From: an uncultured Candidatus Saccharibacteria bacterium
GTDB lineage: Bacteria; Patescibacteriota; Saccharimonadia; Saccharimonadales; Saccharimonadaceae
Assembly: GCA_963551825.1 (NCBI GenBank)
Contig: CAUVHJ010000001.1
Coordinates: 25,833 to 89,832 of the forward strand
Length of the DNA: 64,000 bases
Direction: 5' to 3'
Part shown: positions 2,115 to 9,511 of the stretch, one piece after another
Numbering within the stretch: position 1 is the stretch's first letter
Layout of the letters: each line of letters opens with the position of its first letter
Notes under the pieces: generated by a model
The model's input: the letters and a program-made list of their open reading frames with translations, nothing else
What the model was told of the DNA's origin: nothing
Database searches by the model: none
Made by a program: the position numbers and the translations under genes

Positions 2115-2870
2115 ATGGGTGTAGCAAAGTTAGGAAAACATATAAAGAAGCACAGGGCACTTGTGGTTATACTAATAATTATCCTCATTATAGTCATACT
2201 CGCTCGCACCTGCATCTGGAGAGACTATACCAAAGAGCAGATAGAGATGGCTAAATATCTGAAAGACAAATATAATGGTCAAGAATTTGTAGTAGAAAAA
2301 CCGGAGTTAAAAGGTGCTATGCTGGGTATTGAAGGATACTTCTCTGCCACGGCTTATCCAGCCAACAACAGCAAAATTAGATTCACTGTAATGTATTCGC
2401 CGTCAGACAGGTATGACGGGTATGCCGGGGCTATTTGGTCTAACGGAGAATCAGAGAGACTAAAACCAGAGATATATCGTCTCTTTGGCAAAGACACTGA
2501 CTACACCGTCGAGATAAAGTCAGCGATGACCCTCCAGACTGCAAAGATAGATATGGATATCCGTGGTAAAATCCCCACTTTCAAAGATGCAGTTAAAAAA
2601 TATGGCAAACAAATCCCCTATGGCTTAACCATCAAGAGGCTGAAGAAAAACCTATCAGACGACGAGAAAGAAGATATCGTAAATAAGCTGATTGAGATAT
2701 CAACCCTACTACCGGATGAGACGGATATAACAATTAAATACTTCTCTAAATTTGAGAGGGTGAATAGATACGGCTTGATTGTCCGACTGGATGACCTTCG
2801 TAAGTTAAATAGCAGGCAAGATAAGATTAACATGTTTGAAGGATGGAGGGCAGGCGGATGGCAAATTTAA
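2115..2870 (+). CDS. Membrane-anchored hypothetical protein (N-terminal TM helix plus ~210-aa outward domain); candidate lipase immunity or foldase partner
   Basis: A basic N-terminus is followed by LVVILIIILIIVILA. It is a paralogue of 3..632. Its stop overlaps the lipase start by 13 nt. Confidence 0.7.
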   Translation: MGVAKLGKHIKKHRALVVILIIILIIVILARTCIWRDYTKEQIEMAKYLKDKYNGQEFVVEKPELKGAMLGIEGYFSATAYPANNSKIRFTVMYSPSDRYDGYAGAIWSNGESERLKPEIYRLFGKDTDYTVEIKSAMTLQTAKIDMDIRGKIPTFKDAVKKYGKQIPYGLTIKRLKKNLSDDEKEDIVNKLIEISTLLPDETDITIKYFSKFERVNRYGLIVRLDDLRKLNSRQDKINMFEGWRAGGWQI

Positions 2871-5800
2871 CATTGGAGCAGTATCTGGGACTGTGTACAT
2901 TAGATTTTGATGTCTTCAATGGTTTTGATGCTAACAGTCAGCATAAACCAAAACTAAGTGAATTTAACGCTATACGCTATTCTAAATTAGAATATAAGGC
3001 TCTAGAGAAAATAAAAGATAAATGGGTGGTCATTGGTTTTAACCCTAACACCCTATCCGGTATGGGCGCGGTTGCTATCCAGAACCTTGATACGAAAGAG
3101 GTAGTTATCGCTTATCGGGGTACTGATGCGATTGAGCGTAATGTCAAAGAGGCAATAAAGGATTATGAGGCAGACCTAGCGATTGCCTCGGGCGGCAATA
3201 AAGTGGTCGAAGACGGGCTGAACCAATTCCAAGATGCATACAAATTTTACGAGTGCATCAAGAAGAATACTGGTATCACTGATCCCAGTAAGATTACTAT
3301 TACCGGACACTCTCTCGGCGGCGGGCTAGCGCAGTATGTAGCATACAAGACGAAAGGTCAGCACCAGACGACAACCTTTGACGCAGTCGGTATAGGGCAG
3401 GTACTACCGGGTGTGAACCCGAGAGATTATGATTATTCGATAACAGACTATGTCAATGAAAATGATATCATAGGGCTATACGGTGAACAGCTTGGTCGCA
3501 CCATCTACATTAAAGATGTCGGCAGTACCGAATCTCAGAAACGAAATAGAGATGTCATCATACTTCAGCGATCTACCTTCAGAGCCATTAACGATGCCGT
3601 TAAGGAAGGTAAATTACCGGATACTATGAGCCAGATAGCCGAATACACTTCTAGAGAAATGGTGCGGTCGATACAGAACACCTTTGAGGATATCATTCTT
3701 GATCCACATCGACCCAGCAGTCTCATTGATATAAATACCGGCAAGCTTGCTCAGAGAGTTTCTTGCGGTAACCCTATGGTATCAGCGCTAGGAAAGGGCA
3801 CGCAGGTTATCCTTAAGGCTCATAAAGACATAAATGATGGTCTCTACTTTGTGCTTATCGAGATTCCGGCAGCGGGAGTGAAGACGGTTATATCAATAGG
3901 AAAGACTGCAATAAATATTGTGATTAATACGGCTAAATCTGCTTTCAAATTTGTTTGTGATGTAGGCGATGCTGCATTTTATGCTATAAATGACGCCGGA
4001 GCATACCTGGGCAATAAGGCGACCGAACTAGTTAATTCACTTCTCCACCAAGCTAGCACTATCCCTGTCCGGATAGACCCAATAGTCCTAGACATTAGTG
4101 GGTTGGGTATCACCACCAAGTCCGTTGCTGATGGCGTCTACTACGACATGGATAATAACGGCTTCTTAGAGAAGACCGGCTGGGTCGATGCTAAGTCGGG
4201 CATCTTGGTGCTGGACAAGAATGGTGACGGCAAGATCGAGACAGGCAACGAGCTCTTTGGTGACCGGACTATCCTGGCTGATGGCAAGACTGCCTCTAGC
4301 GGCTTCGAAGCATTAGCCACTCTAGATTCGAATCATGATGGTGTGATAGATGCGAAAGACAAGCTATTCTCCCAGCTACGGATCTGGATAGACAGGGACG
4401 GCAATGGTATCTCAGATAAGGGTGAGCTAATCACTTTGACTCAAGCAGGTATCAAGTCGCTTAGCCTCAAGCACAAGGAACTAAACCAGCTGGATGCTAA
4501 CGGTAACACTATTGCTCGGGTCGGCTCATTCATGCGTACTAATGGCAAGGTAGCCGAGATGAAAGAGTACTTGCTGGCTCGGAGCACCTCGGACGTGAAG
4601 ATGGTGAACTCTATCAAGATTCCTGACGATATCATGGAGTTGCCTGAGATTCGCCCCATAGGTAATACTTATTCATTGCGCCAAGCGATGGCTAGAGATA
4701 AATCCGGCAAGCTCAAACAGCTGGTGCTGAGCTTCACCAGCGAGAAGAATGTCGCTAAGCGTCGAGCCATTCTGGAGGATATTCTCTTCACTTGGACGGG
4801 CGTGGCTAAGGTTGACCCGGCGAGCCGAGGTGGGCTAATCGACGCCAGGAGGTTGGCCGCTCTCGAGATAGTTACCGGTACGAACTACCGTAATTCGCCG
4901 ACCAGTTCCCCGACTAGCCAGGAAGCTCCTATTCTAGAGCAGGCTTATGGCAATCTGGCGGAGAGTATCTACAACATGCTATCGCTACAAGATGGCACGA
5001 TGGATGGTATACTTCGTAAGTTTACCTACCATATAGACTTATCTTCTGATGGTAATCCAATCAAGCTAGATATAGCTAGTGTCAAGGCATATCTGGATGG
5101 TCAGCTCAAGCAGAATAGGCAGGAGGGTGAGAGACTGCTGGGTGAGGTGACTCGCATCCTTAAGAACCGTGGCTTGGTGACAGAGAAAGAGTTCAGTAGT
5201 CTGCGAGACTACTATGCCAGGAAGTCTGCCTACTACCAGAAGATCATCGACACTACGCCGTTTACGACTGCCAGGGGTACAGCTAAGGATGATGTGATGA
5301 GTGGTGCGGTGGATAGGGAAAACATTATAGCCGGTAACTATGGTGATGATACCATCTATGGGTCGAACGGGGTGAACATCCTCTACGGCGAAGCCGGCAA
5401 TGATAGCCTATACGGTGGCAGTAACAACGACACTCTCATCGGCGGCAAGGGCAATGACTACCTGAACGGTGGCTATGGTAACGATACCTACATCTTTTCT
5501 AAGGGTGACGGTAAAGATACCATCGAGGACTATGACTCCACTAAAGGTAACCTGGATACCATCCGCTTCGGCGCCGGCATTAAACCAGCCGACCTGATAT
5601 TCAAGTATGTAAATAATAACCTACAGATTAGTCAACACGGTTCGACAGACTCTGTTACCGTTAACTCATGGCAATATGGTAAGTCGTACCAGATCGAAAA
5701 CGTCCGGACGGCTAATGGTAGTATGATTACCAACACCCAAGTGGATAAACTAATCCAGGCGATGGCAACCTTCCAGCACGATACCGGCATGAGTTGGGAG

Positions 5801-8171: not shown

Positions 8172-9511
8172 GCATACCGAAGCGAGATCGACGACTACAA
8201 TATGAGTTTCTACCGGCTGCGGAAGAGATCATTGAGACACCGGCCGCTCCGTTTGGGGCAGTGGTGATCTGGCTGACTACGATCCTAATGGTCTTAGCGT
8301 TAGCCTGGGCGTATTTAGGGCAAATTGATATCGTTGCGGTAGGTAATGGCAGAGTATCTAATGATGGTAGTGTCAAGGTTGTGCAATCAGCAAGCTATGG
8401 TGTAGTGAAAAGAATTACAGCACAGGAAGGTCAGCGGGTTCATAAGGGCGATGTGCTGGTCGAACTGGACAAGACTACTGCTGAGAAAGAGCTGGCGACT
8501 ACCGCTCAGAGCCTGAATATTGCTCGGGCGGAGCGTGATATCTTGCGACGACTGGCTATGGGCAATGGTGCTGACGACATTATCAATAGTGCGGGTGTAT
8601 CAGATGAGGCTAAGGCGGTTCTCAGAGAGTTTACCACTTCGCAGCTAGCGTTAGCGAGTGCCAAGGAGCAGGCGCTAAAGGGCAGTATTGCTAGTCATCA
8701 GAGGCAGTTACAGCTCAACCAGCAAACTAAAGCTCAGCTGGAAGGTGAGGCGCAGAAGCTGAAAGATCGTCAGGTTAAGGTCAAACAGAAATTAGAGTCG
8801 GCAAATGCCATTGAGCGGATTCATCTGCAAAATGAATTAGATACCCTAGAACAGCGTATTACAACCGCCAATAGTGCCGCTACTAGTCAAGGACAGCAGG
8901 TGCTACAATCTCAGTTAACGCTGGCTCAGACGCAGAGTCAATCGCAGGTCAGCTTAGCTGAAACTAATAGCTCGATTAGTGGACAAGTCATTGCTCAGGA
9001 GCAACGGATTGCTGAGCTGGAGAATAATCTAGCTAAAGCCAAGCGAGCTTTGGAGCAGACCACTATCACTGCACCGGTTGACGGTACGATATTAGCGCTA
9101 AATACCAGGACGATCGGCGGGGTGGTCAATGTAGCAGAGCGGATTGCCCAGATTGTTCCTGACAATGATTTGCTTTATGTCGATGTAACTTTGGACAATC
9201 AAGATGTGGGTTTTGTCAGAGTGGGGCAGAGGGTGGTAGTCAAGGTGGCGACCTATCCTTTTCAACGCTACGGCTACTTAGAAGGGATGGTCGAAAACAT
9301 CAGCCCTGACGCCATCCAGGATGAGAAGAAGGGACTGGTCTACAAGGCTAAAGTTAAGCTATCCGGCGCTAATAGCTCGAAAAAGAACCGGCTAAAGCTG
9401 CTACCCGGCATGAGCGTGTCAGCAGAGATTACTACGGGAAAAAGGCGGATAATCGAGTTCTTCCTTGATCCACTGATGACACATGTCGACGATAGCCTGA
9501 AGGTACGCTAA
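8168..9511 (+). CDS. HlyD-family membrane fusion/accessory protein of the type I secretion system
   Basis: The start is ATGA-coupled to the ABC gene. The product has one N-terminal TM helix, a long Q/A/L-rich coiled coil, and the C-terminus GMSVSAEITTGKRRIIEFFLDPL typical of HlyD proteins. Confidence 0.85.
   Translation: MSIPKRDRRLQYEFLPAAEEIIETPAAPFGAVVIWLTTILMVLALAWAYLGQIDIVAVGNGRVSNDGSVKVVQSASYGVVKRITAQEGQRVHKGDVLVELDKTTAEKELATTAQSLNIARAERDILRRLAMGNGADDIINSAGVSDEAKAVLREFTTSQLALASAKEQALKGSIASHQRQLQLNQQTKAQLEGEAQKLKDRQVKVKQKLESANAIERIHLQNELDTLEQRITTANSAATSQGQQVLQSQLTLAQTQSQSQVSLAETNSSISGQVIAQEQRIAELENNLAKAKRALEQTTITAPVDGTILALNTRTIGGVVNVAERIAQIVPDNDLLYVDVTLDNQDVGFVRVGQRVVVKVATYPFQRYGYLEGMVENISPDAIQDEKKGLVYKAKVKLSGANSSKKNRLKLLPGMSVSAEITTGKRRIIEFFLDPLMTHVDDSLKVR

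Follow-up and report, generated by a model that had tools for sequence, protein, structure and literature searches.

How a bacterium with one membrane could secrete a large repeats-in-toxin (RTX) protein, and at what such a protein would be aimed, are the questions raised by a locus at the left end of a 64,000-nucleotide stretch of DNA (the window) from an uncultured Candidatus Saccharibacteria bacterium (contig CAUVHJ010000001.1, positions 25,833 to 89,832 of the forward strand). The locus consists of orfA, a gene for a lipase-RTX protein, and the exporter genes hlyB and hlyD (Table 1). We read it, with a probability of roughly 0.6, as a two-component, TolC-independent type I secretion system for the export of a polymorphic RTX toxin; that the toxin is secreted, has lipase activity, and is countered by an immunity protein is predicted here from sequence. 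A first-pass annotation, made from the letters of the same DNA, had described a lipase-RTX effector with a dedicated HlyB/HlyD export pair and no outer-membrane partner, and its claims are taken up below where the evidence bears on them.

Type I Substrate, Exporter, and Adaptor

The proposed layout, in which a class-3 lipase head, calcium loops, and RTX repeats are joined in one protein ahead of an HlyB-type exporter and an HlyD-family adaptor, was borne out by the profile searches. The substrate gave scores of 48.9 bits with HemolysinCabind (Pfam cut-off 23), 29.1 bits with HCBP_related (cut-off 21.4), and 26.7 bits with Lipase_3 (cut-off 22), and the exporter gave 46.9 bits with Peptidase_C39 (cut-off 22), 182.8 bits with ABC_membrane, and 112.9 bits with ABC_tran. 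The NCBIfam models TIGR01846 and TIGR01843 were likewise exceeded by the exporter and the adaptor, and thus every profile that had been suggested for searching (Lipase_3, HemolysinCabind, HCBP_related, the C39 domain, and HlyD) scored above its curated cut-off. As judged from sequence, the locus carries each tested feature of a type I system of the HlyB/RTX group except an outer-membrane factor.

The reading frame of the substrate can be extended to a start at position 2843, and public gene calls agree with the start at 2858 and with the length that follows from it. A GGAGG is found 8 nt 5' of the ATG at 2858, which overlaps the end of orfA by 13 nt, and no signal peptide was apparent by eye at the N-terminus of the substrate. 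The head contains the motifs AYRGT and GHSLGGG, and the triad of Ser152 (in GHSLGG), Asp203, and His284 is invariant in 38 family sequences with identities down to ~25%. The AlphaFold model of the head has a core with a predicted local distance difference test (pLDDT) score of 80–94 over most of residues 1–220 and 280–300. The 20 best Foldseek matches of this head were the lipases of Yarrowia, Rhizomucor, Rhizopus, and Gibberella, SMG1 lipase, and feruloyl esterase A, with target-normalised TM-scores of 0.38–0.51; Yarrowia Lip2 was the best of these (3o0d, E 5.6e-6). A related head in locus L005 also scored above the Lipase_3 cut-off (29.5 bits), and the precomputed public annotation of the substrate includes a newer Pfam family, PF26363 "Phospholipase-like". 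By profile, triad, and fold the head is a class-3 lipase (PF01764), and a lipolytic activity is predicted on these grounds.

Beyond the head, the DxDxDG loops span residues 430–523 in columns that are nearly invariant in the family alignment. Four consecutive GGxGxD nonapeptides had been counted in the first-pass annotation; the repeats are indeed present, and the count was too low, since five of six consecutive units fit GxxGx[DN]xxx. The C-terminal tail, ...IQAM..FQ.D.G..W.QA...QP..V..I...YWT.P, is kept across the family, with 23 of its 60 residues being Ser, Thr, Gln, or Asn, and is presumed to act as an uncleaved secretion signal. Pfam searches of the open reading frames (ORFs) of the window gave no match to an HlyC-type acyltransferase or to a pore-forming RTX domain. 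Look-ups of identical sequences returned no record for the RTX protein with either start or for HlyD; orfA (P0121) alone was matched.

The C-terminal region of the RTX proteins varies in length. Relative to window positions 5425..5603, the loci L001, L009, and L013 have an insertion of ~153 residues that duplicates the module of RTX repeats and HCBP_related domain, and the proteins with the insertion have 1162–1240 residues versus 1009 residues without it. Family members in other genera reach 2050–2063 residues, with 7 HCBP_related and 11 RTX stretches.

A query with HlyB against one genome per bacterial species returned 234 relatives, of which the best 80 were examined as loci; comparisons were made between the window and the 10-kb flanks around the related loci. 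The exporter sequence TDPGLYCF was aligned with IDYGLYAL of Escherichia coli HlyB and with TD(C21A)GAACL of PCAT1 (E 8.5e-13), which pairs Pro44 with Tyr9 of HlyB and Cys21 of PCAT1. This alignment places Pro44 at the position of the catalytic Cys, as had been suspected from the DPGLYCF motif, and the catalytic His is also gone. Among the Saccharibacterial HlyBs, 71 of 75 have Pro at the Cys position, and the remainder have Ser or Ala, never Cys. On this alignment the C39-like domain is non-catalytic. An assignment as a peptidase-type (PCAT) bacteriocin exporter was rejected, because neither Cys nor His is present and the bacteriocin-type profiles fell below their cut-offs on the exporter pair (TIGR01193, 399 versus 523.85 bits; TIGR01000, 73.8 versus 258.85 bits).

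The ATGA coupling claimed for hlyB and hlyD was confirmed as an overlap at 8168..8171. The window HlyD was aligned with residues 33–476 of E. coli HlyD, the adaptor of the HlyB/HlyD cryo-EM complex, and thus to its end (E 2.4e-51), it matches the structure of the Serratia lipase adaptor LipC (5nen, E 3.5e-26), and it keeps the long helical region. The alignments to E. coli HlyD and LipC make an inner-membrane complex of HlyB and HlyD plausible.

Outer-Membrane Factor and Cell Envelope

The features of E. coli HlyD that we take to recruit TolC are the first ~30 cytoplasmic residues and a tip motif, RxxxLxxxxxx[ST]. The first ~30 residues of the E. coli protein have no counterpart in the alignment with the window HlyD, and the tip motif, which the E. 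coli control has at R186, is missing in the window HlyD as well as in 72 of 75 HlyDs from Saccharibacteria. No match to the OEP/TolC family was found among the scanned ORFs of the window (30 ORFs at 16187 to 60930 with E <= 1e-6, and the ORF 61024..62973 with E <= 0.01). The wall and envelope genes of the window encode MurT/GatD, a LysM-CHAP hydrolase, and a YkuD L,D-transpeptidase, and a ComEC gene is also present. Patescibacteria have been described as a phylum of monoderm bacteria (PMC11665869). Taken together, the description of the phylum and the wall genes without an OEP match show that the earlier impression of a monoderm-looking genome, with no TolC-like gene in the window, was right. 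An RTX protein in such an organism had been treated as an oddity; it is unusual, but it is not unprecedented, since RTX-B-D operons without TolC have been reported from Gram-positive oral bacteria (PMC7692872).

Exchange of Heads and Their Upstream Genes

Among loci whose HlyBs are 96–99% identical, the RTX bodies are 94–97% identical and the N-terminal heads differ, with at least three head types found at one locus position within one genus. The first type is the lipase of the window, the second is another lipase that is only ~60% identical, and the third is unrelated, with ~465 residues and a hydrophobic C-terminal part. Pfam gave no match for the non-lipase head or for its cognate protein of 161 residues. 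The nucleotide homology (90–95%) to loci with other heads begins abruptly at window position 4037, 4047, or 4049, and the G+C content at third codon positions (GC3) rises from 0.42 to 0.59 at this junction.

Heads and upstream genes were compared for 42 RTX genes with a definable head (30 with lipase motifs and 12 without). An upstream gene is present directly 5' of all 42, often overlapping the RTX gene. Each of the 30 lipase-motif heads is preceded by a protein of 220–280 residues with an N-terminal transmembrane anchor (the orfA family), and each of the 12 non-lipase heads by a protein of 158–170 residues without such an anchor. This categorical match is complete, and the identities of heads and of upstream genes are correlated with a Spearman coefficient of 0.85, a value inflated by relatedness. 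Orphan paralogs of orfA or of the ~160-residue gene lie upstream, up to four per locus.

On these comparisons the locus is organized as a polymorphic toxin system of reversed polarity, in which the upstream genes would provide immunity. The toxin and its partner are placed at the 5' end because the type I signal is C-terminal. The mobile unit, so far as the sequences indicate, is the cassette of head and cognate gene, not the exporter genes. N-terminal toxin domains fused to RTX repeats have previously been interpreted as cargo of type I secretion (PMC12419801).

The N-terminus of OrfA is basic and leads into a single hydrophobic helix and then an outward-facing domain of ~210 residues. Its homologs, which were found in Saccharibacteria only, have no Pfam domain, and the variants are mosaic. 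OrfA is a putative immunity protein for its cognate head; the anchor and outward domain would suit a protector against a toxin that attacks the outer face of the membrane, and a lipase-specific foldase is the main alternative. The assignment of OrfA as a lipoprotein was rejected, because the Cys that follows the hydrophobic helix is not a conserved residue and is Phe in many variants. The fold matches of OrfA to DUF5037 (4gl6) and to a CamS-type lipoprotein had TM-scores of ~0.27 and were not used as evidence.

The loci with non-lipase heads (L001 3707..6292; L007, L009, L014, and others) contain three tandem, soluble-looking paralogs of ~160 residues, the last of which overlaps the start of the toxin gene.

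Conservation, Gene Order, and Composition

The best 80 of the 234 HlyB relatives are all from Candidatus Saccharibacteria. About 50 of these 80 are 96–99% identical to the HlyB of the window, including that of Candidatus Nanoperiomorbus periodonticus TM7 G5 HOT-356, and the others are 70–87% identical, including those of the named Candidatus Nanosynbacter strains TM7-087 and TM7-075. The source organism is an oral Saccharibacterium of Candidatus Nanoperiomorbus, TM7 group G5. The nearest HlyBs identified outside the Saccharibacterial set are 45–50% identical and come from Bradyrhizobium, Rhodopseudomonas, Agrobacterium, Sporomusaceae, and Anaeromusa, the last two of which are diderm Firmicutes.

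Within the genus, the gene order orfA-(423-aa gene)-orfA-RTX-hlyB-hlyD-tRNA-Lys-SufU-SufS-SufB-SufC-NrdD is found in dozens of assemblies, and genes for LepA, an AAA_14/DUF4143 ATPase, and an NYN protein lie further upstream in related contigs. In other genera the RTX gene and its upstream partner are placed before or after hlyBD.

The first-pass annotation had described the locus as an A+T-rich island, proposed its horizontal acquisition, and allowed for a chimeric or contaminant contig end. The compositional claim holds for the head and the upstream orfA genes but not for the remainder of the RTX gene, hlyB, or hlyD (Table 1). The conservation of HlyB, the synteny, and the near-backbone composition of hlyBD indicate that the exporter is an old resident and that the odd composition is confined to the left end of the locus. 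The 70–99% identity of hlyBD across Saccharibacterial genera and the fixed within-genus synteny refute both a chimeric contig end and the idea that the system was transferred recently, the same gene order being present in dozens of independent assemblies.

Table 1. Features of the locus and its borders, with window coordinates and GC3 values.
Feature	Position	Strand	Basis	GC3
orfA paralog, orphan copy, cut by the window start	3..632	+	68% identical to orfA 2115..2870	0.45
423-aa protein between the two orfA copies	674..1945	-	hydrophobic C-terminal third	
Promoter-like site, candidate operon promoter 5' of orfA	2019..2048	+	TTCACT-18-TAAAAT, 9/12 matches	
orfA, 251 aa, N-terminal membrane anchor, putative immunity protein	2115..2870	+	sequence, co-location with head	0.45
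Lipase-RTX substrate/toxin, 1004 aa	2858..5872	+	ORF, Pfam, motifs	
Variable N-terminal head: class-3 lipase domain, then amphipathic segment	2858..4036	+	Lipase_3 26.7 bits, GC3	0.42
Remainder of the RTX gene				0.59
Recombination junction, variable head/conserved body	4037..4049	+	protein motif ...QASTIPVRIDP...	
Four DxDxDG calcium-loop motifs, conserved middle region	4145..4426	+	regex, residues 430, 453, 490, 512	
Six consecutive RTX nonapeptide units	5333..5494	+	residues 826-879, HemolysinCabind 48.9 bits	
HCBP_related domain	5618..5737	+	PF06594, 29.1 bits	
C-terminal 60 residues, presumed uncleaved secretion signal	5690..5869	+	family conservation	
Hairpin hiding the hlyB ribosome-binding site	5887..5919	+	arms 5887..5898 / 5908..5919	
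HlyB-type ABC exporter, 749 aa	5922..8171	+	TIGR01846 916.6 bits vs 725.55	0.54
C39-like domain without catalytic Cys or His; Pro44 at nt 6051..6053	6042..6422	+	alignment	
HlyD-family adaptor, 447 aa, ATGA-coupled to hlyB	8168..9511	+	TIGR01843 314.2 bits vs 208.65	0.51
tRNA-Lys(CTT), right border of the locus	9579..9655	+	promoter-like site 9531..9559, terminator-like hairpin 9664..9687	
Housekeeping genes (backbone)				0.56-0.68

Hairpin Ahead of hlyB

A hairpin with an 11-bp stem had been noted between the substrate and exporter genes and likened to the attenuator of hlyCABD-type operons. The hairpin is present, with 12 pairs and a 9-nt loop (-21.1 kcal/mol, z -2.37; an equally good fold was reached by 4 of 200 shuffles), but the likeness to an attenuator does not hold: there is no U-tract, and the AGAGG that is the Shine-Dalgarno sequence of hlyB lies at 5911..5915 inside the 3' arm, 6 nt 5' of the ATG at 5922. 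An intrinsic terminator was rejected for the same lack of a U-tract, and the structure was missed by the terminator scan. Across 19 distinct sequences, taken from two clades 15% apart in HlyB, the core CCUCUGA/UCAGAGG does not vary; the loops differ between the clades, and four outer pairs are changed on both sides. In the alignment 90.8% of the cells pair, versus 31.5–57.5% once the partner columns have been shifted. In the second clade, where the hairpin is retained, an RTX gene was not detected upstream of hlyB, and the hairpin thus appears to be tied to the 5' end of hlyB and not to the 3' portion of the RTX gene. On these data the hairpin would most plausibly act as a translational restraint on the exporter, not as a hlyA-hlyB attenuator.

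The palindrome GCTTAAGC(TT) is located over the stop codon of the RTX gene at window positions 5868..5881, with a matching site in L037-L075. It is conserved across the clades even where an RTX gene no longer precedes hlyB, possibly as a binding site or as what is left of an ancestral RTX-hlyB junction.

Comparison with Known Systems

The locus shares with the HlyCABD/TolC system of E. coli a non-catalytic C39-like domain, the full-length alignment of HlyD, a C-terminal RTX region, and adjacent genes. It differs in having no TolC in the window, in belonging to a monoderm organism, and in having no HlyC acyltransferase. The exporter has Pro instead of Tyr at the position of the lost Cys and has also lost the His, the adaptor is without the first ~30 residues and the motif of the R186-L190-T197 type, a hairpin that occludes the ribosome-binding site stands in place of the hlyA-hlyB terminator, and the cargo has an enzyme head and is not a pore-former. 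The TliA/TliDEF system of Pseudomonas fluorescens and the LipA/LipBCD system of Serratia marcescens are similar in that a lipase with C-terminal GGxGxD repeats is served by a dedicated pair of ATP-binding cassette (ABC) exporter and adaptor. However, TliA and LipA are family I.3 lipases and do not have the class-3 (PF01764) fold, and these systems use an outer-membrane component and are not known to have a cognate upstream gene or head polymorphism.

The nearest precedent for the setting is ftxABD of Filifactor alocis. Like similar operons in Eubacterium yurii and Streptococcus sanguinis, it is an RTX-B-D operon without TolC from an oral Gram-positive bacterium (PMC7692872), and the window locus adds to these known operons. 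In operons of the ftxABD type there is no acyltransferase, the toxin has a GxSxxG within its N-terminal part, and the gene that lies upstream is hypothetical and unrelated (PMC7692872). The oral setting, the RTX/HlyB/HlyD trio, the lack of TolC and of an acyltransferase, the GxSxxG, and the upstream hypothetical gene are thus held in common, a likeness drawn from the published description; the phylum is different, and no polymorphic heads or cognate arrays have been described for the ftxABD type.

The CdiA, Rhs, and LXG polymorphic toxins resemble the locus in having a conserved delivery region, a toxin that is swapped at a sharp junction, a covarying cognate gene, and orphans. The Tle/Tli pairs of type VI secretion systems and the Esx pair TelC-TipC similarly combine a lipase effector with extracytoplasmic immunity, for which OrfA would be the outward-facing, anchored candidate. 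Unlike CdiA, Rhs, LXG, Tle, and TelC, the window toxin is N-terminal, its cognate gene is upstream, and delivery would be by an ABC exporter and adaptor. LcnC/LcnD and PCAT1 provide cases of an ABC exporter with an N-terminal C39 fold, together with an accessory protein of the membrane-fusion type, acting at a single membrane; they cleave double-glycine leaders by means of an active Cys and His, whereas the window exporter has neither residue.

Proposed Mechanism and Alternatives

In the mechanism that we propose, orfA, the RTX gene, hlyB, and hlyD would be transcribed as one operon, and the hairpin that buries the Shine-Dalgarno sequence of hlyB would keep translation of the exporter low relative to that of the substrate. 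The unfolded RTX protein would be docked by the non-catalytic C39-like domain of HlyB and threaded by the HlyB/HlyD complex, C-terminus first, through the sole membrane. On the outside, calcium would fold the DxDxDG loops and the RTX beta-roll, which would pull the protein through and make export irreversible. The class-3 lipase head (Ser152-Asp203-His284) could then attack the membrane lipids of neighbors, either the actinobacterial host or rival epibionts, while the outward-facing, membrane-anchored OrfA would shield the membrane of the producer. Recombination at the junction that follows the head would swap cassettes of cognate gene and head between strains and leave orphan copies of orfA upstream.

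A number of observations weigh against this mechanism. The passage of an unfolded 110-kDa protein across the peptidoglycan is left unexplained by the model. The absence of the TolC motif carries little weight as a test, since alignments of coiled-coil regions are poor, and the search for TolC itself covered only this window. The AlphaFold model of OrfA is poor (pLDDT 59), Foldseek returned weak matches to uncharacterized Gram-positive surface proteins only, and OrfA, having no recognizable family, could be a membrane-anchored foldase. The cognate protein of the non-lipase head looks cytosolic, which fits a chaperone at least as well as an immunity protein. Shared ancestry of the loci inflates the Spearman coefficient for heads and upstream genes, and the covariation in the hairpin is drawn from two clades only.

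The first-pass annotation proposed an effector acting on host membranes, which was read as animal-directed. This part of the proposal is not upheld, since the host of a Saccharibacterium is a bacterium, and the head-specific gene and the orphans point to an antibacterial system. We consider it unlikely, in particular, that the protein is a periodontitis virulence factor aimed at human or animal cells with OrfA as a mere self-protection or folding helper. The organism does come from human oral samples, a lipase would hit any phospholipid membrane, and the classic RTX toxins and FtxA of F. alocis have been discussed as host-directed (PMC7692872), but cultured Saccharibacteria live on bacterial hosts (PMC8080830). 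Head swapping, head-specific neighbors, and orphan arrays are moreover typical of interbacterial toxin/immunity loci, and neither an HlyC-type acyltransferase nor a pore-forming RTX domain was matched in the window. It is also improbable that OrfA is a lipase-specific foldase or secretion helper for a nutritional RTX lipase that frees fatty acids or lysolipids of the host. Lif-type foldases have the same plan of an N-terminal anchor and an outward-facing domain, and OrfA is always located with a lipase head. In addition, candidate phyla radiation (CPR) bacteria without lipid synthesis have been reported to recycle the lipids of other bacteria (PMC8080830). However, up to four divergent orfA paralogs, with orphans beside non-lipase toxins, are hard to explain by a foldase, OrfA has no similarity to known foldases by Pfam or Foldseek, and non-lipase heads fill the same slot, so that the locus is not dedicated to lipid harvest.

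There is a slim chance that the locus belongs to an ordinary three-part type I system whose TolC-like or unrecognized wall-spanning partner is encoded elsewhere. The inspection covered 64 kb of the genome, the closest non-Saccharibacterial HlyBs come from diderms, and HlyD retains its long helical region; set against these points are the monoderm description of the phylum (PMC11665869), the lack of an OEP protein in the window, the loss of the presumed TolC-docking motif from nearly all Saccharibacterial HlyDs, and the existence of Gram-positive RTX-B-D operons without TolC (PMC7692872). A recent acquisition of the locus as a foreign island, or a chimeric assembly of the contig end, to which the A+T-rich first 4 kb and the adjoining tRNA-Lys gene might point, has next to no likelihood and is refuted for the exporter genes: the order from LepA to NrdD recurs in dozens of independent assemblies, including Ca. 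Nanoperiomorbus periodonticus, and the composition of hlyBD is near that of the backbone.

The preferred reading of a TolC-independent toxin exporter can be extended to the more tentative idea, which we hold at well under even odds, that hlyBD is a self-sufficient secretion machine and the main weapon of Saccharibacteria at the interface of epibiont and host, either an ancient acquisition or one retained when the outer membrane was lost, and supplied with exchangeable lipase or membrane-active toxins. If this is true, the toxins would open the membrane of the host bacterium, kill or weaken the host, and release lipids that Saccharibacteria cannot make, and strain-specific immunity genes would set the rules of competition among epibionts.

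Significance

Saccharibacteria, like other Patescibacteria, are abundant, ultrasmall, and parasitic on other bacteria, and to our knowledge the molecules that they use to damage or exploit their hosts are largely unknown. The locus is a concrete and conserved candidate, comprising an exporter, a cargo, and a likely immunity gene, and it is present in named Ca. Nanosynbacter strains. It is also a natural test of the secretion of a large RTX protein by HlyB and HlyD without TolC, which bears on the mechanism of type I secretion and on the fate of such systems in lineages that lost the outer membrane. What is new is the conservation at the phylum level, the polymorphic toxin of reversed polarity and its cognate gene, the missing features for TolC recruitment, and the hairpin over the ribosome-binding site. 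Although conserved across Saccharibacteria, the locus appears to be unstudied: for type I secretion, RTX, hemolysin, or lipase in Saccharibacteria, Patescibacteria, or TM7x, the literature searches turned up mentions at the annotation level only. A preprint has reported the genetic manipulation of Saccharibacteria, its main text containing none of the terms type I secretion, RTX, hemolysin, or lipase (bioRxiv 10.1101/2023.05.02.539146), and the predictions made here are therefore directly testable.

Other Features of the Window

At the left border, the orfA copy that is cut by the window start has no Pfam match, and related loci hold homologs of 253–258 residues at this place. The 423-residue protein between the two orfA copies is 91–96% conserved at the same position within the genus, and searches of Pfam and NCBIfam gave no match to it. 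The promoter-like site 5' of orfA is a consensus match only, of a kind that is not enriched over shuffles. At the right border, the minus-strand ORF for SufU (NifU_N) enters the plus-strand tRNA-Lys(CTT) gene by 58 nt (9598..9655), and the last ~19 codons of SufU are therefore antisense tRNA sequence; the SufU ORFs are shorter in some related loci (126–127 residues).

Genes for AAA_14/DUF4143 ATPases are found in the window at 35859..37142 (minus strand) and in L081 at 4807..6075. In related contigs such an ATPase gene and an adjacent NYN-domain gene stand just upstream of the toxin locus, and the ATPase genes may mark the variable region.

A second A+T-rich block at 18001..21000 (GC 0.43–0.45) contains the overlapping ORFs 18123..19055 and 19039..20079, which match no family. 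After this block come an FtsA/PilM-like gene (20476..21729) and a gene for a protein of 589 residues with a borderline Baseplate_J match (21731..23500). Near the right end of the window, the ORF of 649 residues at 61024..62973 has a lower GC content (0.476) and no Pfam match. The enzyme of the EPSP-synthase/MurA fold encoded at 53432..54964 (minus strand) is fused to an N-terminal XRE-type helix-turn-helix, an unusual pairing. The protein of 664 residues encoded at 27924..29918 combines RCC1-like repeats with a TIG/IPT domain in a eukaryote-like architecture and is possibly a surface protein.

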